From contig OY282369.1 of assembly GCA_958295735.1 (NCBI GenBank), positions 2,084,983 to 2,116,982 of the forward strand: a stretch of DNA of 32,000 nucleotides, given 5' to 3'. Below are positions 6,986 through 29,532 of this stretch, piece by piece; position 1 is the stretch's first letter; each line of letters opens with the position of its first letter. Under the pieces are notes generated by a model, which saw only the letters and a program-made list of their open reading frames with translations, made no database searches and had not been told where the DNA came from. Source of the DNA: an uncultured Candidatus Cenarchaeum sp. (GTDB lineage: Archaea; Thermoproteota; Nitrososphaeria; Nitrososphaerales; Nitrosopumilaceae). The translations under genes and the position numbers were made by a program.

Positions 6986-7215
6986 CGCGCCGGCATCGCC
7001 GGCCTCCGTCCCCGGGCGGAACGCCAGCCCGGATCGCGCGGGGGCGCCCGCCCGCCCGCCGGCGCCTCCCCCCGATCCCGATCCGCGCCGCGGGGCGGCG
7101 AGGCCACGCTCCCGGGATCCCGCGCGGGCGGGCCCGAACCGTGACCGCGGCAGGCCGCCCCAGGATCCCGCGCCCGGATCGCAATGGGCGCGATCCCGCG
7201 CCTTGGATCTTGGAT

Positions 7216-8676: not shown

Positions 8677-9084
8677 CCGTCCGCCGGATCCGCCGCATCG
8701 AGGGACTAGCCAGAAGGGTAGCCGTGCGAGGCCGCCCGTCACTCTGCTTGGCGCGAATCCAGTTCAGCTGAGGCGTTCCAGCGCTTGGCCCGCTCGTGCG
8801 TGACCTTGCGGATGCCCGGCTCGCGCATGCCGTAACCGCCCGCCGGATCCGCCGCGCCCGGGACAGCCGGCAGGACGGCCGGCTCGCGCGCGGGCCGCTT
8901 CCTGCTTCCGTACGCCGCGCCAATTATTGATGCAAATCCCGCCGCGTTGCCCGTTGCCAACCGCCCGCGCATGGGAGCGGAGCGTGGCCTTGCAGGCATC
9001 CGGCGGAGCCGGCATCGTTGCAGAATGCGGGGCCTCCTGCCCGTTCTCCGGATGCGCCGGCGCGCGCCAGCTTGTGGCGGAAGG

Positions 9085-9122
9085 GACGCGCCGCGCGGTG
9101 AGGATGGCGGGCCCGACCGGAT
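9085..9122 (-). repeat. Duplicate of tRNA-Arg 3' end plus 20-nt 3' flank (att-like)
   Basis: The 38 nt gacgcgccgcgcggtgaggatggcgggcccgaccggat are identical to 9156-9193, which covers the last 18 nt of the tRNA and its downstream flank. Confidence 0.8.
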
Positions 9123-9175
9123 GCAGTTTAACGAACAAAAAACGGAGGCCCAAGAGACGCGCCGCGCGGTGAGGA

Positions 9176-9253
9176 TGGCGGGCCCGACCGGATTCGAACC
9201 GGCGACCTAACGCTCCGCAAGCGTTCGCACTGTCCATGCTGTGCAACGGGCCC
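9176..9253 (-). tRNA. tRNA-Arg (anticodon GCG), CCA encoded
   Basis: Reverse complement GGGCCCGTTGCACAGCATGGACAGTGCGAACGCTTGCGGAGCGTTAGGTCGCCGGTTCGAATCCGGTCGGGCCCGCCA folds by hand as a cloverleaf. It has a 7-bp acceptor stem, D stem GCAC/GTGC, anticodon stem AACGC/GCGTT with loop TTGCGGA, and a TTCGAAT T-loop. Confidence 0.9.
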
Positions 9254-9952: not shown

Positions 9953-10083
9953 GGGGCTGGCCTCCGCGAACCGCCGCAGCGCCGCCAGGCGGCCCTCCCG
10001 GCCGCGCTCCCCGAGCGGGACCGCCTCGACCAGGCGCCCGCTGCCCGCCGCATCGGCGCGCAGCGCGCGCTGGATGGCTACCA

Positions 10084-10259
10084 GGCCTTCCGCGGCCGGG
10101 CGCGCCGGAACCCCGGCGCCATCGGCGTCCGCTTCGGCGCGGGGGCCAGCTACACGGCCTTCCGCGGCCGGGCGCGCCGGAACCCCGCCGCCGTCGGCGT
10201 CCGCTTCGGCGCGGGGGCCAGCTACCCGGCCTTCCGCGGTCAGGCGCGCCGGAACCCCC
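10084..10259. repeat. 72-bp tandem repeat, about 2.4 copies (degenerate extension back to ~10049)
   Basis: ggccttccgcggccgggcgcgccggaacccc... restarts at 10084, 10156 and 10228 with a few substitutions between copies. Confidence 0.85.
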
Positions 10260-10659
10260 TCTCGTACTGGCCGACGAACTCCTTCACGCTCATCAGCTCC
10301 CTCAGGCGGCCGTAGGCGGCCGCGTCCCGTTCCGGGGCCCCGGCCAGCCGGTCGGACTCGCCGTCCACCTCGGCTGCCAGGCGCGCCACGGCCTCCGCGT
10401 GGGGGCCCGCATCGAAGGCTGCCACGGCCTCGGCCGCCGCGCGGAGGGCGGCGCGCGCCTCCTCGCCCGCCGCCCCGCGCCCGAGGGCCGCCGCGCCGGC
10501 CCTGACTGAGATGGCCGCGTGGTACGCGCCGATCAGCCTCGCGGCCGCGGGCCTGCCTCCGGAAAGCTCCGCTACCTCGGCGGCCAGCCCGCGCGCTTCC
10601 TCGGCCAGCCCGCGCGCCCCGGCCCCCCGCACCCCTGCGGGCCCCCCGCTACGCTTCAC
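10240..10659 (-). CDS. Ala-rich helical hypothetical protein
   Basis: 139 aa. The GTG start overlaps the aquaporin stop by 11 nt. Codons are G-first (gcg/gcc/gag/gtg) and the C-terminus is protein-like (YGRLRELMSVKEFVGQYERGF). It could still be a GC artefact. Confidence 0.4.
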   Translation of the reverse strand: MKRSGGPAGVRGAGARGLAEEARGLAAEVAELSGGRPAAARLIGAYHAAISVRAGAAALGRGAAGEEARAALRAAAEAVAAFDAGPHAEAVARLAAEVDGESDRLAGAPERDAAAYGRLRELMSVKEFVGQYERGFRRA

Positions 10660-11353
10660 GCTCGGCCCTTTTGACGTACAGGGCGTTCATCAGCACCGCC
10701 GCGATGATGCCGCCGACGATGGGCCCCACCCAGTACAGCCACTGGAACTCCCACGCGCCAGATGCCAGGGAGGGGCCGAAGCTCCTGGCCGGGTTCATGG
10801 ACGCCCCGGTCAGCGGGACGCCGACCAGGTGCAGCAGGAAGACCATGCCGCCCACCGCTATGCCGCTGGCGCCGGCCGCCGCCTTTTTGTGTATGACGGC
10901 CCCGAATATGGTGGCCACCAGGAAGAACGTGAATATCACCTCCAGGACGAGGCCCGAGGCCGCGCTACCGCCCAGCACGCCGCTGGGCCCCGTGTGCGCC
11001 CCCAGGTTCGCCGCCATCCCCGCCTCGGGCAGCACGGCCAGCAGCGCGAAGGCGGCCACCACCCCGCCGACCAGCTGGGCCCCGACGTACGCGGCGCCCT
11101 CGGACGGGGATATCCTTTTCGTGATGATGAGCGGTATGGTCACGGCGGGGTTGATGTGGGCGCCCGATATGTGGCCGAACGCGTACACCACGAGGCCCAC
11201 GGCCGCGCCGTGCGCCAGCGAGATCATTATTATGGACTCGATGCCCAGCCCGTCCCCGTACACCACGACGGAGAGCACCACCGCGAGCGGCCCGAAGAAG
11301 ACCAGGGCGAACGTGCCTATCCCCTCGGCCAGCCAGTTCCTGGGATCGACCAT
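10649..11353 (-). CDS. aqpM: Aquaporin / MIP-family channel (AqpM-like)
   Basis: Both NPA boxes are present (HISGAHINPAVT, GASMNPARSFGP). I place the start at the internal ATG 11351-11353 (MVDPRNWLAEGIGTF), which lies 25 nt downstream of the TATA, not at the track start 11419. Confidence 0.9.
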   Translation of the reverse strand: MVDPRNWLAEGIGTFALVFFGPLAVVLSVVVYGDGLGIESIIMISLAHGAAVGLVVYAFGHISGAHINPAVTIPLIITKRISPSEGAAYVGAQLVGGVVAAFALLAVLPEAGMAANLGAHTGPSGVLGGSAASGLVLEVIFTFFLVATIFGAVIHKKAAAGASGIAVGGMVFLLHLVGVPLTGASMNPARSFGPSLASGAWEFQWLYWVGPIVGGIIAAVLMNALYVKRAEREA

Positions 11354-11371: not shown

Positions 11372-11383
11372 TTTTAATATAAA
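11372..11383. promoter_or_regulatory. Near-symmetric TATA box (ttttaatataaa) between aqpM and element copy A
   Basis: Its centre is 25 nt from the aqpM ATG (11353) on one side and 28 nt from the first base of the 88-nt element (11406) on the other. Confidence 0.6.
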
Positions 11384-11405
11384 CGGTGCCGGGTTCCGGG
11401 GGCGC

Positions 11406-11493
11406 AGACTTGCGTCCAAACCGGAACCGCGCCCAGCAGCGGCGAGACGCCCCGCGATCCCGCGCCCGGATCGCGGCGGACGTAAGCCCGCAC
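11406..11493 (+). repeat. 88-nt conserved element, copy A (candidate structured small RNA or MITE)
   Basis: Aligns without gaps to the reverse complement of 19403-19490 with 73/88 identities. The terminal 9-nt inverted repeat is cttgcgtcc (11409-11417) / ggacgtaag (11478-11486). Confidence 0.75.
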
Positions 11494-11536
11494 TTCCGGG
11501 GCGGAGCGCGGCGCCGCGCGCGGGGCGGGAACCAAC

Positions 11537-11547
11537 CGTTAATTAGG
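11537..11547 (+). promoter_or_regulatory. TATA box for bcp
   Basis: cgttaattagg is centred 26 nt upstream of the GTG at 11568. Confidence 0.55.
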
Positions 11548-11567
11548 GCGCGCCGCCCGGCGCGCCC

Positions 11568-12029
11568 GTGCTGGGCGAGGGCGACGCGGTGCCGGAGTTC
11601 GAGGCGGAGGACGCCGACGGCGGGACGGTCGGCTCCGCCTCGCTGCGCGGCAGCAGGTACGTGGTGTACTTTTACCCGCGGGACTTCACGCCCGGCTGCA
11701 CCGTGGAGGCCGGCGAGTTCGCCAGGGAGTACCCGAAGTTCAGGCGCGCCGGGATAGAGGTCGTCGGCGTGAGCCCCGACGGCGCGGAGTCGCACAGGCG
11801 CTTCCGGGAAAAGACCGGCGCGCGGTTCCCGCTCCTGGCCGACACCGACAGGAGCGTGTCCACGGCGTTCGGCGCGTGGGGGAAGAAAAAGATGGCGGGC
11901 CGCGAGTACATGGGCGTGGTGAGGAGCACCTTCCTCGTGGACGAGAGCGGGACGGTATTCAGGGCGTTCCCGAAGGTGAAGCCGGCGGGGCACGCGGCGG
12001 AGGTCCTCGCCTCGTTCGCGTCAAAATAA
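11568..12029 (+). CDS. bcp: Peroxiredoxin, Bcp/PrxQ type (AhpC/TSA family)
   Basis: YVVYFYPRDFTPGCTVEAGEF holds the peroxidatic Cys in the PxxxTxxC context. At 153 aa the length is typical of Bcp. Confidence 0.9.
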   Translation: MLGEGDAVPEFEAEDADGGTVGSASLRGSRYVVYFYPRDFTPGCTVEAGEFAREYPKFRRAGIEVVGVSPDGAESHRRFREKTGARFPLLADTDRSVSTAFGAWGKKKMAGREYMGVVRSTFLVDESGTVFRAFPKVKPAGHAAEVLASFASK

Positions 12030-12037
12030 GGGAAAAA
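12023..12037 (-). terminator. Oligo-T tract downstream of the repeat-protein gene
   Basis: Just after the TAG (12046-12048) the minus strand reads gcagcagatttttcccttattttga, with T5 and T4 runs. Archaeal terminators are oligo-T. Confidence 0.35.
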
Positions 12038-12045
12038 TCTGCTGC

Positions 12046-13263
12046 CTAGAAGCCCTTCGGCATGGTGCCCCTCGAGGGCTTTCGCGCGCTGCCCTCGGCC
12101 TCGGCGCGCTTTTTGGCCGCCAGCTCGGCCGCGGCTGCCGCGACCTCCGCTGCCCTCTTGGCATCGGCGTCCAGCCTGGCGAGGTACTCTTTTTCGTACG
12201 ACTCGAGCGACCCCGCGCCGGACTGCGGCGGCGGGGGCGGAGCCTGCTGCTGCTCCTGCCTGGGCGGCGGGGGCGGCGGCGGCGGCGCCTGCTGCCTTGC
12301 CTGCGCCTTGGCCTCCGCCCCGACGCCGGCTACCGCGTAGCCGTACCCGTCAAAGTTCTTCTCCGCGGGGTGGTAGGCGAGCCTCTGCCTGGTCGCAAAG
12401 TAGTTGTTCGACGCGGCCGTGTACCCGGTGACCTTCTCCTTCTGCAGGTTCCAGTCGGACAGGGGGGTCGTGCCCCTCTTTGCGTGGAGCCTCTCGTAGT
12501 ACCTGTTGGGGGAGGGCGAGTAGCCGGGCGTCTTGGCCTTGTAGTCGAACGGGTTGCTCATCGCGGCATCCCTGTAGATGGCCTCGAGCGCCTGGGCGTT
12601 GTTGGCGGGCGGCGCGGCCGACACCGTGTCGGGCTTGGGCGCCGGCTTGGACTCCTGCTTTGCCTTTGCCCCCTTCGGAAGCGTCCCGTGCGGAGACGGG
12701 GGCTTTTCCTCCTTGGGCTCGGCCTTCGGGGGCGGGGGCGGCGGAGCCGCCTTCGTTCCCTTCGGAAGCGTCCCGTGCGGAGACGGGGGCTTTTCCTCCT
12801 TGGGCTCGGCCTTCGGGGGCGGGGGCGGCGGAGCCGCCTTCGTTCCCTTCGGAAGCGTCCCGTGCGGAGACGGGGGCTTTTCCTCCTTGGGCTCGGCCTT
12901 CGGGGGCGGGGGCGGCGGAGCCGCCTTCGTTCCCTTCGGAAGCGTCCCGTGCGGAGACGGGGGCTTTTCCTCCTTGGGCTCGGCCTTCGGGGGCGGGGGC
13001 GGCGGAGCCGCCTTCGTTCCCTTCGGAAGCGTCCCGTGCGGAGACGGGGGCTTTTCCTCCTTGGGCTCGGCCTTCGGGGGCGGGGGCGGCGGAGCCGCCT
13101 TCGTTCCCTTCGGAAGCGTCCCGTGCGGAGACGGGGGCTTTTCCTCGGGCGCCGGCTGGGCCTCGGGCTTCATGCTGATGTTGGCTGACAGCGTCTCGAG
13201 CTTTTTCTCGAGATATGCTATCTTGTCTTCAAGTTCCTTCTTTGTCGGCTTTGACTTAGCCAT
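12046..13263 (-). CDS. Coiled-coil / polyproline tandem-repeat protein (hypothetical)
   Basis: 405 aa. N-terminus MAKSKPTKKELEDKIAYLEKKLETL, then 5.5 copies of the 29-aa unit KPPSPHGTLPKGTKAAPPPPPPKAEPKEE. The C-terminal region has P8 and P5 tracts and ends in a motif echo, KPSRGTMPKGF. A TATA lies 29 nt upstream. Confidence 0.8.
   Translation of the reverse strand: MAKSKPTKKELEDKIAYLEKKLETLSANISMKPEAQPAPEEKPPSPHGTLPKGTKAAPPPPPPKAEPKEEKPPSPHGTLPKGTKAAPPPPPPKAEPKEEKPPSPHGTLPKGTKAAPPPPPPKAEPKEEKPPSPHGTLPKGTKAAPPPPPPKAEPKEEKPPSPHGTLPKGTKAAPPPPPPKAEPKEEKPPSPHGTLPKGAKAKQESKPAPKPDTVSAAPPANNAQALEAIYRDAAMSNPFDYKAKTPGYSPSPNRYYERLHAKRGTTPLSDWNLQKEKVTGYTAASNNYFATRQRLAYHPAEKNFDGYGYAVAGVGAEAKAQARQQAPPPPPPPPRQEQQQAPPPPPQSGAGSLESYEKEYLARLDADAKRAAEVAAAAAELAAKKRAEAEGSARKPSRGTMPKGF
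12671..13146. repeat. 87-bp tandem repeat, about 5.5 nucleotide-perfect copies (in-frame within 12046-13263)
   Basis: ttcggaagcgtcccgtgcgg recurs at 12674, 12761, 12848, 12935, 13022 and 13109. By eye there are no substitutions between copies. Confidence 0.95.
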
Positions 13264-13284
13264 TGCGGCACCGTCCTGACAATG

Positions 13285-13300
13285 CCTTATTTACATTTTG
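13285..13300 (-). promoter_or_regulatory. TATA box for repeat-protein gene
   Basis: Minus strand reads caaaatgtaaataagg, centred ~29 nt upstream of the ATG at 13263. Confidence 0.55.
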
Positions 13301-13542
13301 GTTGGCCGCGGGTATGGGGTCGCGTGCCCGTCAGTCACAGGCGTGAGAACGCCTTCCTGATCCGGATTCGCGCCCGCGGAGCGGGGGTTGCTGACCTCGT
13401 AAGGCCGCGGGCGCGGGTCCGCGGGCCCGCCGGCCACGGGCGCGAAAACGGCCTCGCCGGTCCGGATCCGCGCCAGCGGCGGGGGCGCCGCCGGCCCCGT
13501 GCGGCCGCGGCGCGCCCGCGGCCCGGCCGCCGCCGGCTGCGC

Positions 13543-13560
13543 GGGGGGGGGGGGGGGGGG
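13543..13560 (+). repeat. G18 homopolymer
   Basis: 18 consecutive G between ctgcgc and aggcgaag. Confidence 0.95.
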
Positions 13561-13716
13561 AGGCGAAGCCTTCCGGATCGGCCGGCATGCCCGCGCCGCA
13601 TCGCCGAGGCGTGCCGGCGCATCGGCCGCCGGCGCGGGGACGCCCCTGCCTGTCCGGGCCGGCGCCCTGCGGAGGGGGCGGCCGGCGGCCCCGCCCCGCC
13701 CGCGCCGGGGCCGCGC

Positions 13717-13908
13717 CTAGTCGGGTTCCCAGAACGTCGCTACGTACAGGCAGTTGTTGCACCTCCAGACCTTGACATGCACGCCGTTGTATGTGTCCAC
13801 CCGGTACGAGCCGTCGGCGCGCTTTTTTAACCTCGGGAGGTAGTGGATGTGCGGGTTCCCGAGCCACTCGTTCTGCCCGCAGTTGGGGCAGGCGTCGGCG
13901 GGAGGCAT
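13717..13908 (-). CDS. Small zinc-ribbon protein (hypothetical)
   Basis: The last 63 aa of track ORF 13717-14094 read MPPADACPNCGQNEWLGNPHIHYLPRLKKRADGSYRVDTYNGVHVKVWRCNNCLYVATFWEPD, with CPxC...CxxC knuckles. The N-terminal part of the track ORF is Arg/Ala/Pro junk. Confidence 0.55.
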   Translation of the reverse strand: MPPADACPNCGQNEWLGNPHIHYLPRLKKRADGSYRVDTYNGVHVKVWRCNNCLYVATFWEPD

Positions 13909-14819
13909 GGCGGGCCCCGCCGCGCTGCCCAAAAGTACCTTTCTGTCTGCGCGCCCGCCGGCGCGCGGGGCGGACGCCCGGCAAGCGCGGCAGGGGACGC
14001 GCCGCGCCGGCCGCGGCGCGCGGCAGCAGGGTGGGCGCCGCGCGAGAGGCCGCGCATCCGCAAGCTGGCCGCATGCGCGAAGATCCTCCCACAACCGAAT
14101 TTGCGCCTGGCCGGGAAGGGCGGTTGCCGGCTTCGGCAGCCGCGGCCGCCTGGCCGTCCGTAACGGGCCCTGCCGAATGCGCTAGGGCAGTACCCGTGGC
14201 GGAAATGCGGATGCATTTCGGGAGAAAATCGCCCACGCCCGAGGCGCCGAAAACCGACGCCCGGAACCAACCCGCCCACATTCCTTCGTGGCCGCGTTCC
14301 GCCTATCCCGGCAACGCGGGGACAGCACTCCTCGATCTTGGCGCGACGATCGAGGCGCGCCGCGATCCCAAGCTGCCCGCAAAACGCCGGCGCTCCGTCT
14401 GGCTGGACAAGCGCGACGCCGTTCGTTCCAAGGCCGAAAACACCACGAAAGTGTCCGGAATGCCGAAGGCGCATGCCGGCGAGATGCCTCCGGGCTGGCT
14501 GGGGCCGCCGGCTGCGGGGTTCCGGGCAGCTGGTTCCTGCACCCCGCTTGCGCTCAGAAGCATGCCGTGCGACTTGCGCCTTTTCGCGCGGGGGAGCGTG
14601 GGCAACGCGGGGAGGCGAGCTTCCGGCTCGGACAAGCCGGCGGATCTTCTGGCTGCGAAAGGAGCTGGGTTCCGGGCGGCGGCGGCACGCACCAGCCATC
14701 GGCGCGGTGCCTCCGCGCGCCCGCTCGGGGCAATCCGCTCCGCCCCGATTCTGGTGGGGGGATGCGCCCGCCTGTCCGGGCGCCCGCGCGCCCCGCCCCC
14801 GCGCCCGCCCCGCCGGGGC

Positions 14820-14930
14820 GGCCGGCAGCCCCCGCCCCGCGGGCGCGAACCCGGACCGGCAAAAGCTCCCCCGGCCGCGGCCGGCGGGCGCGCGGCCCCG
14901 TGCCGGGGGCCCCTGCGCAAATTTAATAGG
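14820..14930 (+). repeat. Promoter-bearing GC-rich repeat, left arm (copy X)
   Basis: Shares ggccggcagc, ccccgccccgcgggcgcg, acccggaccggc and ggcgcgcggccccg, in the same order and ending at a TATA box, with the reverse complement of 15601-15700. Confidence 0.75.
14919..14928 (+). promoter_or_regulatory. TATA box for 14946 gene
   Basis: aaatttaata is centred ~23 nt upstream of the ATG at 14946. Confidence 0.55.
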
Positions 14931-14945
14931 CAAGGCGTGCGGGGC

Positions 14946-15326
14946 ATGCCCGTGGACGACTTTGAGCGGGACTATCCCGACTTTGACTGGCGGAACACGC
15001 CGGCCTACAAGCACCCCGGGGGAAAGGACTGCCCGTGCCCCAAGCACGAGTACGTGCGGGAGCAGATCAACTACACGAAGCAGGTGAACGCGGGCGGCAA
15101 GGACAAGGCGAGCGTGACCCTCCGGTTCTGCCCCGACCACTACCGCGTGTACGTGGACGAGGTGGTCCCGTCGATGCCCTTCAAGTACCGCATGTTCACC
15201 AAGATAGCCCTCCGCGTGGGGGCCATCCGCGTGGTGCGGCTGGGGCACATGCAGTCGGACATCTGCTTTTACTGCAAGTTCGGCTCCGGCGGCTACGGCA
15301 AGAAGACCGAGCTCCCCCCGGTGTAG
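14946..15326 (+). CDS. Cys/His-rich hypothetical protein (126 aa)
   Basis: The last 126 aa of track ORF 13791-15326 read MPVDDFERDYPDFDWRNTPAYKHPGGKDCPCPKHEYVREQINYTK...RFCPDHYRVYVDE...SDICFYCKFGSGGYGKK. Composition is protein-like, unlike the upstream part of the ORF. Confidence 0.65.
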   Translation: MPVDDFERDYPDFDWRNTPAYKHPGGKDCPCPKHEYVREQINYTKQVNAGGKDKASVTLRFCPDHYRVYVDEVVPSMPFKYRMFTKIALRVGAIRVVRLGHMQSDICFYCKFGSGGYGKKTELPPV

Positions 15327-15336
15327 GGCCGCGCCG

Positions 15337-15576
15337 TCAGGCGGGCCCGACCAGGATCTTGGGCCTGTTGGGCGTGTCGTGGTGGCACTTTTTCCCGCAC
15401 AGGGGGCAGACCTTCCTGTCCAGCAGCACGCACTGGCAGATGTGGGACTCGAGGTAGGCGCTGGCCGCCCTGCTGGACTCGCCGGTCCCGTTGCAGAACG
15501 GGCAGCCGGAGCCGAGCAGCCGTATCGTGCCGCTCCCGCCGCACACGGCGCAGCGGCCGCCCCCCGAGCCCTCCAC
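15337..15576 (-). CDS. Small DnaJ-type zinc-finger protein (CxxCxGxG x2 plus extra Cys/His cluster)
   Basis: 79 aa from the GTG at 15576: (M)EGSGGGRCAVCGGSGTIRLLGSGCPFCNGTGESS...HICQCVLLDRKVCPLCGKKCHH. A TATA lies ~30 nt upstream. The rest of track ORF 15337-16314 is rejected. Confidence 0.65.
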   Translation of the reverse strand: MEGSGGGRCAVCGGSGTIRLLGSGCPFCNGTGESSRAASAYLESHICQCVLLDRKVCPLCGKKCHHDTPNRPKILVGPA

Positions 15577-15600
15577 GGGCGCGCGGGCGGCGGGCGCCGG

Positions 15601-15700
15601 TAAAAATATTTGGTCTGCGCCGCGGGCGCGGGGCCGCGCGCCTGCCAGGCGCTTCCGCCGGTCCGGGTCCGCGCCCGCGGGGCGGGGGCCGCTGCCGGCC
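15601..15700 (-). repeat. Promoter-bearing GC-rich repeat, right arm (copy Y); includes TATA aatattttta (15601-15610)
   Basis: Inverted counterpart of 14820-14930 (see that feature). The TATA is the innermost part of the arm. Confidence 0.75.
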
Positions 15701-16612
15701 CCGCGCGTCCCGCGCCCAGGAAAGGGACGTGCGGCCAAAGGCGGGCGCGCCGTGCGGGCGCATCGCGCCGGCCGGGAGGCGAAACGGCCGCGGGATCGAG
15801 CGCGGCGCCCGCCCGCCAAAAGATCCCGCACCCGGCCGCGATCGCGCGGCGCGGGGGGCGGCCGCGGCGGTCGGGGGAAACGCCCGCGGATCCGCGCCGG
15901 AGGGGCTCGGGCCCCCTCCCCGCGGATCGCGGGTACCGCGGCCCGTGCGGCGGGCGGCGCGGGAGAGTTCCCCATGCCCGCCGGGACGGCGGCGGGCATC
16001 AAAAAGGCCCGGGCGGATCGCGGGCGCGGGGGGCGGGAAAGGGCGCCCGCGCGCGGGCGGCGCCGGGGGCGGGACTGTACGCCTTCCGGCCGGCCGCCGG
16101 AAAGCGCGCGCCGGACAGGCGGCGGGCGGGCGCGGCGGCACCCCGCGTCCGCCGCCGGCGCCGCGCAGGGCGCGATCGGGCGGGCCGCGCAGGGCGTGCC
16201 GGACGCGCACGGGCGGCGCCGGGGGGCGGGGAACGCCCGCGGGCCGATCAAGGGGATCCCGACGGCGGGCGGCGGGAGCCGGCCGATCGGGACGATCGCG
16301 GCGCGCCTTTCCACGATCTGCCGCAGCGTACGGCGCGCGCCCGGCCGCGCCGCCGATGCGGATGCGGAGGAACCGAGGGCCGGGCCGCACGGAAGCGCGT
16401 GCCGCCGTGCGTGCCCGTTGTGTTGATGGCCGGATTTGCGTCGGGGCCTCCGGGACGGGCACGGACAGGCGGGGCTGCCGCCTCCGGCACGCTTTCAACT
16501 CCCGATGCATTCGAGCCTGCGCCCGCTGCCGCCTCCGGCGCGCCCGCGCCGCCGTCGCTGAACGGCGGGGTCTTTTTCCCGCGCCCGATCCCCCAGTTGA
16601 ACGGGGGCAGCG

Positions 16613-16710
16613 GGCGGCCGAACCGCCTCGGCGCCAGCCCTGCCAAGCTCGGGATCGAGGGCGGGCGGGCGGCCGAGTAGCAGGCGGCCGAACCGCCTCG
16701 GCGCCAGCCC
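16613..16710. repeat. Perfect 28-bp direct repeat pair (16613-16640 and 16683-16710)
   Basis: ggcggccgaaccgcctcggcgccagccc occurs twice, 70 bp apart. Confidence 0.85.
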
Positions 16711-16951
16711 GGTGCGGTACTTGGCGCTGCGGGTTTGCCCCGACGGCGTCCAGCATCCCTGGCGCGCGCATGGGCCCGGGATCGCCGCGCGCGGGCCTTT
16801 TTCGGGCGGCGGGCGGCTTCGAGCCCGCTCGGCTTCCAGTTCTGCCTACGGCCGCCCGTTCCTGTCCCGGAGTGCGGCCGCCTGCCGCCCGATCGAGTCC
16901 GGCACGCCGCGGTGCCGCGCGCCGGGGACTTGCCTGTTGCCCTGGCCAGCT

Positions 16952-18946
16952 TCATCCGGACGGCGAACCGCCCGCCGCCCCCATTGCCCGCCCGTCCTCG
17001 TCCGTTATGCTCGTAATCAGCTTGCATGCCCTTGATGCCTTTTCTTCCCCGTCGACATACTCCCGATACGCCGCTTGCGCGCTGTGGATGAGCTCGTCGT
17101 ACATGACGATCCGCGCGGAGTAGGCTTCCAGCACATTTTCCGACCGTGTTCGCCCGCCGACATTGCCCCAGTCCTCCACGTCCCTTCCCAGCACGCAGAC
17201 GAATTCCACCGGCTCGTTCCCTTTTCCCGACCTTGCAAGGACGGACCTCACGCCCTCGCCGTATTCCAAAATCTGCCCCAGCAGTTCGACCGTCGATGCC
17301 ACGGCGCCCGGCCGCTTCAGTTCTATTATGACGTGCTTGCCGCCGGCGGCCCTGTATTTTATGCCCAGTCTGGACTTTTTTTGATCCGGCGCGAGCCCGT
17401 CATAGACGTTATCTAGCGCCTTCATGATGCTTTTTTCCATGGATTTGGTCGGCGCGGCCCGATCCCAGGAAGGATCCAGCAGCCAAAGGTGATCTAAAAG
17501 GCACTCTTGTATGGCCCTTTCCCTGGCGTTTTGATCCGTCAGTTTGAAAAGTGCGTCAATCGCCCCGAGCCGGGTTTTGGCCGTCTGGTAATACGCGCCG
17601 GCCTCAAGATCACCAAGCCGCGATAATGCCCTGGTCAGCGACGGGAGATCATCCGCGCTGATTTTTTCCAGCCTGTTCAGCACGCCTTTTAATTCGAGGC
17701 TTTCGAACGCCAGTATCCCGCTGACAAAGGCGCGCCTTTTTTCGTCCTCGTCATCAATCGGCAGCGCGTGGATCCTGCCGAACAGTTTTTGGGCCGCGTG
17801 CCCGCGATCCGGCGACAGCCCGTCGAACCATCCCCTGATCTGCGGTATCTTCAGTGCGGCCTTTTCCCCGTCCAGGCCGCGCAGACTGGTCCACCTGTCT
17901 CCCACGTGCCTGAGTATTTTCCTGACCGACTCCAGCAGTGCCCGGTATTCTGGAGAATCCTCCATGATCTGCTGCCCGTTGGTGGTGGCGACGTCACTCC
18001 CGTCACCGCGATCCAAAAAATCCGCGTATACCTCGCCCACGACATACCTGTTGTATGCGCCCGCATTCTCCAGCCCCCCGAGGATGTCTTCCTGTGCCAT
18101 CTTGCCGCGGATCATGACGGTGATCCTGTTGATGCTCTCTTCGGCGTCGTGATCTTTCAGCTGCCCTGCTTTTTTCACGGTCCCGATCCACCCGTCCAGT
18201 CTCGCGGTCCGGCCGCCCCATTCCGCCACGGGATCGCAGCCGAGATCCTGGATCCCGCCCGCGCCGGATATGGCGCCCCTGCCCTTCTCCCCCAGCCCCC
18301 ACGCGTATTCCAGGTTTTTATAATAACCCGTATCCTGTTTGGTGACGTCTTCCCCGTTCACCCTCACGCTGAAATTGCCGCCGTTTCTGACCACGCTGAA
18401 TCTGCGTGCCAGCCCCCTTTTCAGGACGGCGGGCCTCCCCACGCGCTTGAGCGAGGACAAGACTATGCGGGTTCCGGGTTTCAGATCTCTGGTCACCTTG
18501 ACGGGTTTCGGGTTGTACGCCCCGTCGGGCTTTTGGGCGGCTTTCCTGATATCGTTCGCATCCATGACGAACCCGTGCGGCTCGCCGTTACCCGCGCTGG
18601 TGATCTCCACGGCGTCGGCTATTGAAAACAACGAAAGTTTGCCTATTCCCCTGCGTCCCATGACGGGCCTTCCAAATTTGGCGGTGACGTCACCCTCCTT
18701 CCTCCGTTCATACCCCACATTGAGATACTTGTCGTTCGCGTCACGGACGGTCATTCCGCTCCCGTCGTCCCGGATCACGACCCGGTTTTCGCTTATGTCT
18801 ATTGACACTACCGTCGCGTCCGCATCCCACGCGTTGGCCACCGCTTCTGACAGAACGGCCGTAATGCTGCTGTGCAGGCCTATCCCCAGGTGCTTGAGCG
18901 CGCTGAGGCTTACCCTTGCGGTGTATGTGGGTTCATCCGCCATCAT
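16952..18946 (-). CDS. GHKL (HATPase_c_3, MutL/MORC/Hsp90-type) ATPase with C-terminal PD-(D/E)xK/DUF4263-like module
   Basis: 664 aa. ATP-binding motifs EAVANAWDA, IRDDGSGM and GRRGIGKLS appear in canonical order. The C-terminal part reads ECLLDHLWLLDPSWD...SRLGIKYRAAGGKHVIIELKRPG. A GC sample is 52%, against 83-90% in the flanks. Confidence 0.85.
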   Translation of the reverse strand: MMADEPTYTARVSLSALKHLGIGLHSSITAVLSEAVANAWDADATVVSIDISENRVVIRDDGSGMTVRDANDKYLNVGYERRKEGDVTAKFGRPVMGRRGIGKLSLFSIADAVEITSAGNGEPHGFVMDANDIRKAAQKPDGAYNPKPVKVTRDLKPGTRIVLSSLKRVGRPAVLKRGLARRFSVVRNGGNFSVRVNGEDVTKQDTGYYKNLEYAWGLGEKGRGAISGAGGIQDLGCDPVAEWGGRTARLDGWIGTVKKAGQLKDHDAEESINRITVMIRGKMAQEDILGGLENAGAYNRYVVGEVYADFLDRGDGSDVATTNGQQIMEDSPEYRALLESVRKILRHVGDRWTSLRGLDGEKAALKIPQIRGWFDGLSPDRGHAAQKLFGRIHALPIDDEDEKRRAFVSGILAFESLELKGVLNRLEKISADDLPSLTRALSRLGDLEAGAYYQTAKTRLGAIDALFKLTDQNARERAIQECLLDHLWLLDPSWDRAAPTKSMEKSIMKALDNVYDGLAPDQKKSRLGIKYRAAGGKHVIIELKRPGAVASTVELLGQILEYGEGVRSVLARSGKGNEPVEFVCVLGRDVEDWGNVGGRTRSENVLEAYSARIVMYDELIHSAQAAYREYVDGEEKASRACKLITSITDEDGRAMGAAGGSPSG

Positions 18947-19402
18947 GATCCCCCGCGCGTGCGGTTGTGCATCTTCCTGCCTCTTCCCCCAAAAGAACCG
19001 GAGCGCCGTTGCCTATAAACCCGGCAGTCCGCGGTTCGCATTGCGCAGTCCCAAAAGCGGCGGCCTCTTCCTGCACGCGCGCCCGTCCGGGCCGGACGAC
19101 GGAGGCGGGCCGAATGGGTGATCCGCGGGGCGGAAATGAAAGCGGGGGGGAGTCGGCCTTTGTCCCGATCCAAAGCGGCGGGCCGGAGCCGTGGGGCAGA
19201 ACCGGGGCCGCGTCGGGCGGATAGCCCGCCGGAAGCGCGGGGGCGGGATGGCGATCGCGCGGGTGGCGGACCATGAAGGTCCCGGCGTCCGTGGCCGGGA
19301 GGCCGCGGCTGGGATGCGGGGGCCGCGGCGGGAGGGGGGCAAGCGCGCGCCCGCCGCGGCGCCGGCGGCCCTCCGCCCGCGGCCGGCGCGCGCCCGCCGC
19401 CC

Positions 19403-19490
19403 GTGTAGGCTTACGTCCATCGTGATCCGGGCGTGAGATCATGGGGTGGCTTGCCGTTGCTAGGCGTGGTTCCGGTTTGGACGCAAGTCT
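19403..19490 (-). repeat. 88-nt conserved element, copy B
   Basis: The reverse complement aligns to 11406-11493 (73/88). Fourteen of the 15 differences are transitions in which copy A carries G/C and copy B carries A/T. Confidence 0.75.
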
Positions 19491-19510
19491 ACGCCGCCGC
19501 CCCCCCACTA

Positions 19511-19520
19511 GGCTTATACC
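19511..19520. promoter_or_regulatory. TATA box (ggcttatacc) between element copy B and the ubiD-family gene
   Basis: Its centre is ~26 nt from the GTG at 19542 and ~25 nt from the element's first base at 19490. Confidence 0.55.
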
Positions 19521-19541: not shown

Positions 19542-20984
19542 GTGCCGTTCGAGGATCTGGGCCAGTTCGCGAGGGCGCTGGAGGAGGCCGGCGAGCTCAA
19601 GAGGGTCGCCGCGCGGGTCGATCCCGACCTGGAGGCGGCCGAGATCCTCCGCCGCGTCATGTACGCGGGGGGACCGGCGGTACTGTTCGAGGACGTGAAG
19701 GGATCGGAGATGCCCGTGCTGGGCAACGCGTTCGGCTCGGAGCGCCGCATGCGCATGGCCCTCGGGACGGACGACTTTGCGGAGATAGGCGACCGCATAG
19801 CCGGGATGGCCCGCACGGAGATGCCCCGCGGGATGCTCGGCAGGCTGCGCAAGCTCCCCGAGCTGTCGCGGATGGCCGGCTCCTTCCCGCGCGAGGTGGG
19901 CTCGGGGCCCGTGACCGAGGTGGTCTCGGAGGGCCCGTCGGCATCCATGGCGGGGCTGCCCGTCCTCAGGACCTGGCCCGGCGATGCCGGCCGCTTCATC
20001 ACCTTCGGCCTCGTGGCCACCAGGCACCCCGAGACCGGGGTGAGGAACCTGGGCGTGTACCGCATGCAGGTGCTAGACGGCACGCACGCGCTGATGCACT
20101 GGCAGAGGCACAAGCGCGGCGCGCAGCACGCGGAGCTGTCCGGGGGCGGCCGCACGGAGGCGGCCGTGGTGATAGGGGCCGATCCGGCCACCGTGTTCGC
20201 CGCGGTGGCCCCCGTCCCCGAGGGGATGGACAAGTACCTGTTCGCCGGGATCTGCCGCAGGGAGGGGATACGGACGGTCCGCTGCCGCACCGTCGGCCTG
20301 GACGTGCCGGCCTCTGCCGAGATCGTCCTGGAGGGCCACGTGGACGGATCCGACCTGAGGGAGGAGGGCCCGTTCGGGGACCACACCGGCTACTACACCC
20401 CGCCCGAGCCGTTCCCCACGTTCACGCTGACCGGAATGATGCGCCGCAAAAGGCCCGTGTACCTGGCCACGGTGGTGGGCAAGCCGGCGCTGGAGGACGC
20501 CCACATCGGGGGGGCCATCGCGCGCTCGTTCCTGCCGCTCATACGCGTGATGCAGCCTGAGGTGGCCGACTTTGCGATGCCGGCCTCCGGCTGGTTCCAG
20601 GGGCTGGCCGTGGTCTCCATACGGAAGAGCTACCCCGGGCAGGCAAGGAAGGTCATGATGGGGCTGTGGGGGATGGGGCAGCTGGCCCTCACCAAGATCA
20701 TAATAGCCGTGGACCACGACGTGGACGTGCACGACGTGCGCGACGTGGTGTGGGCCGTGACGACCCGGGCCGACCCCGCCAGGGACACCCTGCTGGTCGG
20801 CGGCGCGCCGACGGACACGCTCGATCCCGCCTCGCCCCTCCCCAACCTGGGCTCGAAGATGGGGATAGACGCGACGCAAAAGACCGCCGAGGAGGGCCAC
20901 GCGAGGCCGGTGCAGGAGCTCGCGTCCCCGGACCCCGCGACGGCCGCGGCCGTCGACGAGCGGTGGCGGGGCTACGGGCTGTAG
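19542..20984 (+). CDS. UbiD-family decarboxylase (menaquinone/futalosine-pathway type)
   Basis: 480 aa. PVLFEDVKGSEMPVLGNAFGS, LGVYRMQV, GPFGDHTGYYTP and the overall length are typical of UbiD family proteins. It neighbours an Mqn radical-SAM gene. Confidence 0.85.
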   Translation: MPFEDLGQFARALEEAGELKRVAARVDPDLEAAEILRRVMYAGGPAVLFEDVKGSEMPVLGNAFGSERRMRMALGTDDFAEIGDRIAGMARTEMPRGMLGRLRKLPELSRMAGSFPREVGSGPVTEVVSEGPSASMAGLPVLRTWPGDAGRFITFGLVATRHPETGVRNLGVYRMQVLDGTHALMHWQRHKRGAQHAELSGGGRTEAAVVIGADPATVFAAVAPVPEGMDKYLFAGICRREGIRTVRCRTVGLDVPASAEIVLEGHVDGSDLREEGPFGDHTGYYTPPEPFPTFTLTGMMRRKRPVYLATVVGKPALEDAHIGGAIARSFLPLIRVMQPEVADFAMPASGWFQGLAVVSIRKSYPGQARKVMMGLWGMGQLALTKIIIAVDHDVDVHDVRDVVWAVTTRADPARDTLLVGGAPTDTLDPASPLPNLGSKMGIDATQKTAEEGHARPVQELASPDPATAAAVDERWRGYGL

Positions 20985-22197: not shown

Positions 22198-22492
22198 TTA
22201 ACGGGCGGCCGGCCCGCCTCGCAGCCGCGCCCGCGGCGGCCGCGGCGGGGCGGTTTTTCGCGCCCAAAATCCCGGTTGCGGGGTGGGCTGCGGGCGGCCG
22301 CGGGGAGCCGCCCCCGCCCGCTGCCGCGCGACGCGCCTCCGACGCGGGGCGGGCCCCCCGCCCCTGCCGGGATCCGCGCCCCGCGCCGCGCGGGGCCGCG
22401 CGCCCGCCGGCCGCGGGCGCGAAAACGCTTCTGCTGATCCAGGTTCGCGACTGCGGGGCGCGGGTTGCCGGCCCCGCGCCCCGCGCCGCACG

Positions 22493-28672: not shown

Positions 28673-28729
28673 AAAGGCACGAAGTCACCACTATTTCACC
28701 CGCGTGTCAACAAAACCTGATCGCGCGGT

Positions 28730-28807
28730 TGCCGCGCGTCCGGGGATGCCGCGCGTCCGGGGTTGCCGCGCGTCCGGGGATGCCGCGCGTCCGGGGTTGC
28801 CGCGCGG
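28730..28807. repeat. 17-bp tandem repeat, about 4.6 copies (tgccgcgcgtccgggg[a/t], alternating, i.e. 34 bp x 2.3)
   Basis: Units are 28730-28746, 28747-28763, 28764-28780, 28781-28797 and a partial 28798-28807. The array lies 58-135 nt upstream of the ATG at 28672. Confidence 0.9.
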
Positions 28808-29532
28808 CACGGGCCGGCCCGCGGCAAACCGGAAATCGGGGGAGGCGCCGGATGCGCCTGCCCGCGTCCCCGGGGCACGGGGCGGAGCCTGCCGGCAATC
28901 GCGGGGCGCGCCCCGCGCCGCGCCGCAGCGCCGCGCCGGACGGGCGGACGGACCTGGCGGCCCGGGGCCGCGCGGGATCGCCGCCGGGCCGGCATCCGCC
29001 GCCCTCCGCCGCCCGAGCCGATCCAGCAGCCGGCCCGCCGCGTGCGCGACGGGCAGCCAGAACGCGGCGCTGCGCGCTGCCAGCATGATGTGCGGGACGG
29101 GCCGGGGCGGGCGGAACGCGCCGTTGGGGATCGGCGAGGCCGGGATCACCGGCGCGTTGCTGCGCGCGACCGGCATCGGGCACTGGTTGTGCTGGTTCGG
29201 GGCAGCCTCGGCCCCGACGAGTCCCACGATGCCGCAGATCGGAAGCGGGGCGTACGGCAGGATCCGCGCGCGCTGCATGGCGGGAAGGGGCCGCGGAGCC
29301 CCGGCCTCGGGCGGGAATCCGCCGGCATCCGGCCCCTCCACCGCGCGCTCCGGGGCGCCGCCCGCACGTGTCGCATCGCCGGGAGCCCCCGCGGGCGCCC
29401 GTCCCCGGGCGGGGCCCGATCCCGGCGCCCGCCGATGCCGGCAGCGCCGCCGGCGCGGGGGCGGGGCCGCGCGCGCCAGGAAAGGCCGGCGGGGGCGGGC
29501 GGCCCCGCGGCCGATCCGGGCGCCCCCCCTGT

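Follow-up and report, generated by a model that had tools for sequence, protein, structure and literature searches.

Two candidate small-RNA genes of a Nitrosopumilaceae-like archaeon are probably insertions of a 92-bp MITE with IS66-type ends

Genomic context of the repeated element

The window, that is the whole 32,000-nt stretch of archaeal DNA analysed here (GC ~72%), carries two diverged copies, A and B, of a short intergenic element placed in opposite orientations. Copy A lies between aqpM, a gene of the MIP family on the minus strand (10649..11353, ATG at 11353), and a bcp/AhpC-TSA peroxiredoxin gene on the plus strand (11568..12029), the latter with a TATA-like motif of its own (TTAATTAG at ~11540-11547). 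The TATA box of the aqpM promoter (TTTTAATATAAAC, 11372..11384) stands outside the element. Copy B, on the minus strand, neighbours a UbiD-family decarboxylase gene on the plus strand (19542..20984, GTG at 19542), whose TATA box (GCTTATAC on the plus strand) is located at 19512..19519.

The original prediction had described the same TATA geometry at both loci, and this was recovered: TATAA pentamers at 11378-11382 for copy A and at 19518-19514 of the minus strand for copy B are each placed 23 nt before an AGAC, and both are 24-28 nt from a start codon, the aqpM ATG and the UbiD GTG, respectively. From this arrangement A and B had been read preferentially as small-RNA genes (transcripts of 80-90 nt), one near-symmetric TATA box driving the small RNA from its reverse face and a leaderless mRNA in the other direction. 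As paralogous RNA genes of ~88 nt, they would fold into a three-way junction with a 9-bp closing stem. The spacing of exactly 23 nt in both cases and the pyrimidine-purine step at the predicted start are in line with such genes; a MITE-like element inserted at promoter-proximal sites had been mentioned as the alternative.

Other repeats and inserted sequences are present in the window. A 47-nt direct repeat, 94% identical (9076-9122 and 9147-9193), overlaps the 3' end of tRNA-Arg (9179-9253, minus strand) and its downstream sequence, and looks like a partial tRNA duplication left by an integrating element. Three 72-nt tandem repeats were detected at 10065-10280, a 17-nt tandem array (CGGGGWTGCCGCGCGTC) at 28724-28823, and six tandem repeats of 87 nt (29 codons), with middle units 99% identical, at 12575-13233. 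These last sit in a 405-aa gene of the minus strand (12046-13263) without a Pfam match, the length of which ranges from 402 to 405 aa across strains. The gene of a 664-aa HATPase_c_3 protein (16952-18946, minus strand), of low GC content (59-60%), belongs to an island (~15600-19500) inserted between UbiD and a 79-aa gene, the two being adjacent in relatives. The island also holds IS insertions, and its content varies by strain: some variants add transposases of the DDE_3 or DDE_Tnp_1 type, or a gene of 417 aa. Its bounds are copy B and a member of a second, unrelated MITE-like family. The latter, 92 nt long with GC-rich ends (GCGCGGGKCCGCG...), is found at 13411-13502, 22388-22479, ~14798-14911 (minus strand) and ~15619-15707, and perfect 8-bp direct repeats surround the first (GGCCGCGG) and the second (CCCGCGCC) of these copies.

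Boundaries, terminal repeats and flanking duplications

Recomputation gave the same ungapped alignment between 11406-11493 (plus strand) and the reverse complement of 19403-19490, with 73/88 identities and the first 23 nt identical; this 23-mer has no other occurrence within the window and was matched in 0/100 shuffles. The repeat is real, but the 88 nt first attributed to it fell short of the full unit: widening the A/B alignment by 12 nt per side placed the conserved start 4 nt earlier, at a GCGY, and extended the unit to 92 bp. Copy A spans 11402..11493 on the plus strand (alignments A4 and A5, covariance-model match of 103.5 bits), bounded by terminal inverted repeats (TIRs) and 8-bp direct repeats, and copy B spans 19403..19494 on the minus strand (alignment and covariance model), adjoining the UbiD core promoter at the edge of the strain-variable island.

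The TIRs are 16 bp long and imperfect (consensus GYGYAGRCTYRSGTCC), with 11-14/16 positions paired within copies. For copy A, the 5' TIR (GCGCAGACTTGCGTCC) is located at 11402..11417 and the 3' TIR (reverse complement GTGCGGGCTTACGTCC) at 11478..11493, both on the plus strand; once the 3' TIR is reverse-complemented, the two agree at 12/16 positions. The 9-nt terminal inverted repeat with one G-U pair that had been reported does exist, but the stem CTTGCGTCC/GGACGTAAG is only the inner part of this longer structure. No coding signal was detected between the repeats, the substitutions being distributed by codon position as 4/5/6 between A and B and as 9/9/8 between B and D (a further copy described below), with no 3-nt periodicity; the long open frames that cross the element are expected at 72% GC.

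Perfect 8-bp direct repeats, which had been missed earlier, are found at the same alignment columns around both copies. For copy A, TTCCGGGG occurs on the left (11394..11401) and on the right (11494..11501), and for copy B, GGGCGGCG of the minus strand occurs on the 5' side (19495..19502) and on the 3' side (19395..19402). The chance rate of an 8/8 repeat around a 92-nt span was measured empirically at 2.3e-4 per position; against this background, their position exactly at the boundaries of A, B and a further copy, F, is not due to chance. These direct repeats are target-site duplications, and since the duplicated targets differ between A and B, they point to two independent insertions. Target-site duplications around the copies had been named in the original prediction itself as evidence that would favour a MITE over an RNA gene, and because both copies carry them, the small-RNA reading fails on its own terms.

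The duplications also bear on whether A and B might be the inverted ends of one composite transposon, or of an invertible 8-kb segment (11402-19494). The two copies do form a 116-nt inverted repeat, 78% complementary and separated by 7.9 kb, and the segment between them holds the low-GC, strain-variable island. However, each copy possesses its own, different 8-bp duplication on both sides, which indicates separate insertions and not the arrival of one unit. Furthermore, in element-free relatives the block from bcp to the 79-aa gene, which lies between the copies, is arranged towards UbiD in unchanged order and orientation, and no inverted arrangement was observed among the sampled strain variants, making a single 8-kb unit extremely improbable.

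Dispersed copies in the same metagenome

The family comprises six copies (A-F) in roughly 130 kb of non-redundant sequence. Three are in the window (A, B and C), and three (D, E and F) are on further contigs of this metagenome, which were reached through transposases present in several copies. Copy C, which is decayed and had been overlooked, lies at ~7122-7201 on the plus strand (nhmmer E=3e-6; covariance model 34 bits); it keeps the internal hairpin and a 3' repeat-like end, while its 5' part bears deletions and has lost the 23-mer. Copy D was located at 2615-2706 of contig L015 (nhmmer E=1e-7), copy E at 3236-3327 of L029 and copy F at 12862-12953 of L031 (E=3e-14). On the basis of shared IS families, we infer that D, E and F come from the same organism as A-C. 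The distance between repeat ends is 92 nt in A, B, D and E, and 92-93 nt in F. Alignment of A, B and D requires no gap and gives identities of 66-83%, a regularity that could also be advanced in favour of RNA genes.

Copy F bears TTCAACGC on each flank, again an 8-bp duplication, and an empty paralogous intergenic region of the same locus contains a single TTTTACAC at the insertion position. A clean duplication was not seen at C, D or E; the loss of flanking direct repeats is expected in older MITE copies (PMC10969869). For copy D, the missing duplication on the right side may be due to an IS terminal-repeat fragment located there: an IS of 3.1 kb from the same locus has 67-nt terminal repeats at 11836-11902 and 14851-14917 of L015, and a piece of this repeat (TAGTCTATCTCATAATCACGCCT) is contained in the right flank of D (2707-2740 of L015).

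Distribution among strains, relatives and public collections

Strain variants of the locus were obtained from the long-read contigs of ENA assembly ERZ19489113. Both A and B were present in all sampled variants, with no presence/absence polymorphism among them. Copy B was identical in every variant sampled, and copy A showed 6/92 polymorphic sites, compared with 6/705 for aqpM, 3/462 for bcp and 1/122 for the rest of the spacer. The polymorphism of copy A between strains thus exceeds that of its flanks about eightfold, which argues against a small-RNA gene. Four of its six polymorphic sites cluster at 11476-11483 in the 3' repeat, where strain variants have either GGACGTAAG or GGGCGCAAG, with GC, GT or AT before it; these clustered variants reproduce those of B and C, suggesting gene conversion between copies.

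At a larger evolutionary distance, the best named relatives of the UbiD protein, from Cenarchaeum symbiosum and Nitrosotenuis, share 71% and 68% identity with it, respectively, and even its closest relatives reach only 75-80%. The element was absent from the syntenic loci and from all sampled DNA of these nearest relatives (75-80% UbiD identity). In MITE-free relatives, the UbiD TATA box (GGCTTATACC) is kept at the same distance from the GTG, showing that it is older than copy B. Both the absence of the element and the greater age of this TATA box run against a small-RNA gene. Pattern scans of public genome and metagenome collections (CTTGCGTCCAAACCGGAACC, GTCCAAACCGRAACCRCGCC) returned no matches or only chance ones; with the covariance model, the best collection match (contig L021) obtained 20 bits and did not stand out from the other chance matches selected by pattern.

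Terminal stem, internal hairpin and RNA-family searches

Across the copies, the terminal stem co-varies, but not all helices are supported by covariation. The core 9 bp of the TIR are paired in 6/6 sequences of alignment A4, with two compensatory positions; where A and B differ on one side of this stem only, the given strand always reads as a G-U pair, and the G-U variants found among strains pair only on this strand. Pairing of the terminal stem in all copies is what small-RNA genes would display, and the G-U-only changes would also fit RNA-level selection, but copy E has an A.C mismatch in that orientation. Parallel change in the TIRs is nevertheless expected where both ends must fit one transposase, and is no evidence for an RNA helix. 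The pairing moreover reaches 4 nt upstream of the predicted transcription start, which weighs against RNA genes.

The internal hairpin of copy A (CGCGATCC-CGCGCCC-GGATCGCG, 11453..11475, plus strand) is intact, with 8 bp, and that of copy B has the compensatory change (C-G to U-A) and the U-G pair that had been described. A change from g to a at the second position of its 5' arm, overlooked before, adds an A.C mismatch (pair 49/69). The hairpin is kept in A, B and C, whereas F retains 5 bp of it; it is lost in D and, by inspection, in E, and 73% of its pairs are formed overall. Its loss in two copies weighs against RNA genes. For the second helix, no compensatory change on both sides was observed, and B and D do not form its outer pair. 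Fold z-scores of -1.7 and -2.2 on the given strand, against -1.0 and -0.75 on the other, favour the strand predicted for the small RNAs, but are only mildly better than those of shuffles.

Searches for known RNAs pointed the same way. At the gathering threshold, Rfam returned only tRNA-Arg (9179-9253) in the window, and neither locus matched an RNA family. With permissive E-values, Rfam and ARAGORN gave nothing meaningful at both loci, the best hit being a chance bZIP-intron match (20.8 bits for a gathering value of 41). Comparison by eye with characteristic features (ACA box and pocket, C/D boxes, T-loop, R''/R' cores) showed that none of the H/ACA guide, C/D box, tRNA-like or attC-like models fits. 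No T-run able to terminate transcription follows A or B. Considering these results with the target-site duplications, the hairpin and TATA losses in other copies and the absence from relatives, we judge the interpretation of A and B as dedicated small-RNA genes to be quite improbable.

The hairpin could instead be viewed at the DNA level, as part of an operator or activator site for aqpM and UbiD on which a shared factor would bind the GATCC-N7-GGATC palindrome and the identical 23-mer. The element is upstream of both core promoters with the 23-mer nearest the TATA box, and the palindrome recurs at 7164-7180, upstream of the promoter of a SBP_bac_3 gene. Against such a site, the duplications and TIRs show arrival by transposition, relatives run the UbiD promoter without the element, the palindrome is missing in D and E, and aqpM, UbiD and the solute-binding protein appear to have no evident common regulation. 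A regulatory site of this kind is therefore a very doubtful explanation.

Relationship with IS66-type insertion sequences

The sampled contigs are rich in IS, with many transposase genes of the IS630, IS66, rve and DDE_Tnp_1 types. On contig L013, GTGTGGACTCACGTCC at position 18259 forms the terminus of an element with a split transposase gene on the opposite strand; the upstream fragment of this gene (L013:20872-21318, minus strand) matches PF03050 (DDE_Tnp_IS66) with 46.3 bits for a cutoff of 23.1, and for the downstream piece a weak resemblance to transposases of IS66 was noted. A homologue of this element, 70-73% identical, is found on contig L030, where GTGTAGACTTACGTCC at 7078 is located at a distance that fits the other end, and is likely the other end of the GTGT-type IS66 element. 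The open reading frames of the L030 element had no Pfam match, and this copy is probably degenerate. This GTGTRGACTYACGTCC-ended IS66 element is the putative parent.

The L030 IS66-type end agrees with the MITE TIRs at 15/16 positions for the 3' end of B and the 5' end of F, and at 13/16 for the 5' TIR of A. By our own count, the 3' end of F matches the L013 end at 14/16 positions with a 1-nt shift, and on that count F would combine an L030-type end with an L013-type end. In copy E the resemblance to the L013 end continues into the subterminal sequence, with 2/2000 shuffles scoring equally well; in A, B, D and F no significant similarity to the IS extends past the 16-bp repeat. No complete autonomous element, carrying both ends and flanked by a duplication, was recovered, the two ends coming from two diverged, interrupted copies.

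IS66 termini classically begin with GTAA. In the MITE and the putative parent, GTGT or GCGY stands at this place instead, and another IS66 group of the assembly does begin with GTAA (GTAATAGCTCACG; ends GTAATAGC or GTACGAGC). One GTAA-ended IS66 element of L013 carries an 8-bp duplication (GAGATCCT) at 18931-18938 and 20869-20876, and the IS66 family generally makes an 8-bp target-site duplication (PMC3916326). As candidate parents, the GTAA-ended group was rejected, its ends being unrelated to the MITE TIRs, as were IS630-type elements, with ends TAGCCACGGAAATAAGTAAC / TAGCCACGG... and a TA duplication. From the sequences compared, an IS66-family IS of the same assembly is most likely the parent, and its transposase the presumed mobilising enzyme.

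These contigs also hold nested elements. At L013 18259-21320, a GTAA-ended IS66 is inserted (with GAGATCCT) in the transposase gene of the GTGT-ended IS66. At L014 18405-21320, an IS630-type element lies between the transposase fragment of the GTGT-ended element and the transposase gene of a GTAA-ended IS66, at or adjoining the left end of the latter. Three 29-nt subterminal tandem repeats were observed in the L013/L014 nested elements.

Insertion beside core promoters

A TATAA is found exactly 19 nt from the MITE at A and B and 22 nt from it at F, a TAATA lies ~21 nt from it at E, and the same element end faces the TATA-like motif in these four copies. No TATA box was found on the 5' side of D or C, which again does not favour RNA genes, and the four family-2 MITE copies of the window have no adjoining TATAA pentamer. 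The shared spacing of 19-22 nt in four copies is unexplained by simple random insertion.

As insertions, A and B each came to rest in a narrow gap separating two divergent core promoters, 11 nt past a TATAA. The pre-insertion spacer between aqpM and bcp measured ~114 nt, with one TATA box per end, and MITE A is located between them; copy B is located just beyond the ancestral UbiD core promoter. The 'mirror-symmetric' geometry therefore reflects the landing site and not a purpose-built promoter. The small number of harmless sites in very short divergent spacers may be enough to explain the TATA spacing. A more specific possibility, which we regard as unlikely though worth keeping in mind, is that insertion is aimed at core promoters through TBP/TFB-bound or bent DNA, A and B thereby being transcribed from the reverse TATA face into structured small RNAs. 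If the spacing holds genome-wide, it would point to promoter-directed insertion in archaea, a result of moderate interest.

Interpretation and comparison with known mobile elements

Taken together, the sequence evidence leads us to conclude, with a probability of about 0.85, that the two 'small RNA genes' are insertions of a 92-bp non-coding IS66-type MITE, with 16-bp TIRs, an 8-bp target-site duplication and ends matching those of local IS66 elements. The alternative mentioned in the original prediction, a MITE-like element at promoter-proximal sites, is thus the one borne out by the duplications, the TIRs, the dispersed copies and the match with IS ends. For its mobility the MITE most likely depends on an IS66-family IS of the assembly, whose DDE transposase would act in trans, as suggested by the nearly identical terminal repeats that those elements carry. 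The terminal stem would then correspond to a pair of predicted transposase-binding ends, co-varying between sub-families since both must fit the same transposase.

These results remove a false small-RNA candidate and indicate that MITE TIRs can mimic a covarying RNA helix. They also bring to light a GC-rich MITE family that had not been described and is linked with elements of the IS66 type; its contigs, crowded with mobile elements, belong to a Nitrosopumilaceae-like archaeon, and in the literature searched, no paper on MITEs in Thaumarchaeota was found. The family is new, and the kind of element is ordinary.

The element resembles prokaryotic MITEs such as the Correia elements of Neisseria, the enterobacterial ERIC and the MITEs of Sulfolobus, which are likewise small, non-coding, bounded by TIRs and dispersed in intergenic regions, often just upstream of genes. 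As in those families, direct repeats flank the younger copies, and the RNA, if transcribed, would adopt a stable hairpin structure (MITEs as defined in PMC10969869). It differs by its sequence, which had no match in Rfam or in the scanned collections, by the lack of an evident internal promoter, and by its composition: whereas MITEs are typically AT-rich (PMC10969869), this family is GC-rich (59-75% across copies) and resides in GC-rich targets. With IS66-family IS, it shares the 8-bp duplication (PMC3916326) and 16-bp termini that agree at up to 15/16 positions with the PF03050 elements of the assembly, but it is devoid of a transposase gene and its termini begin with GTGT or GCGY. Finally, the Coxiella small RNAs Cbsr3, Cbsr13 and Cbsr16 derive from QMITE elements (PMC10969869), and by analogy a promoter-adjoining copy could likewise be transcribed here, where only some copies adjoin a TATA box; some copies may even have been retained because they are transcribed, as the Coxiella example would allow.
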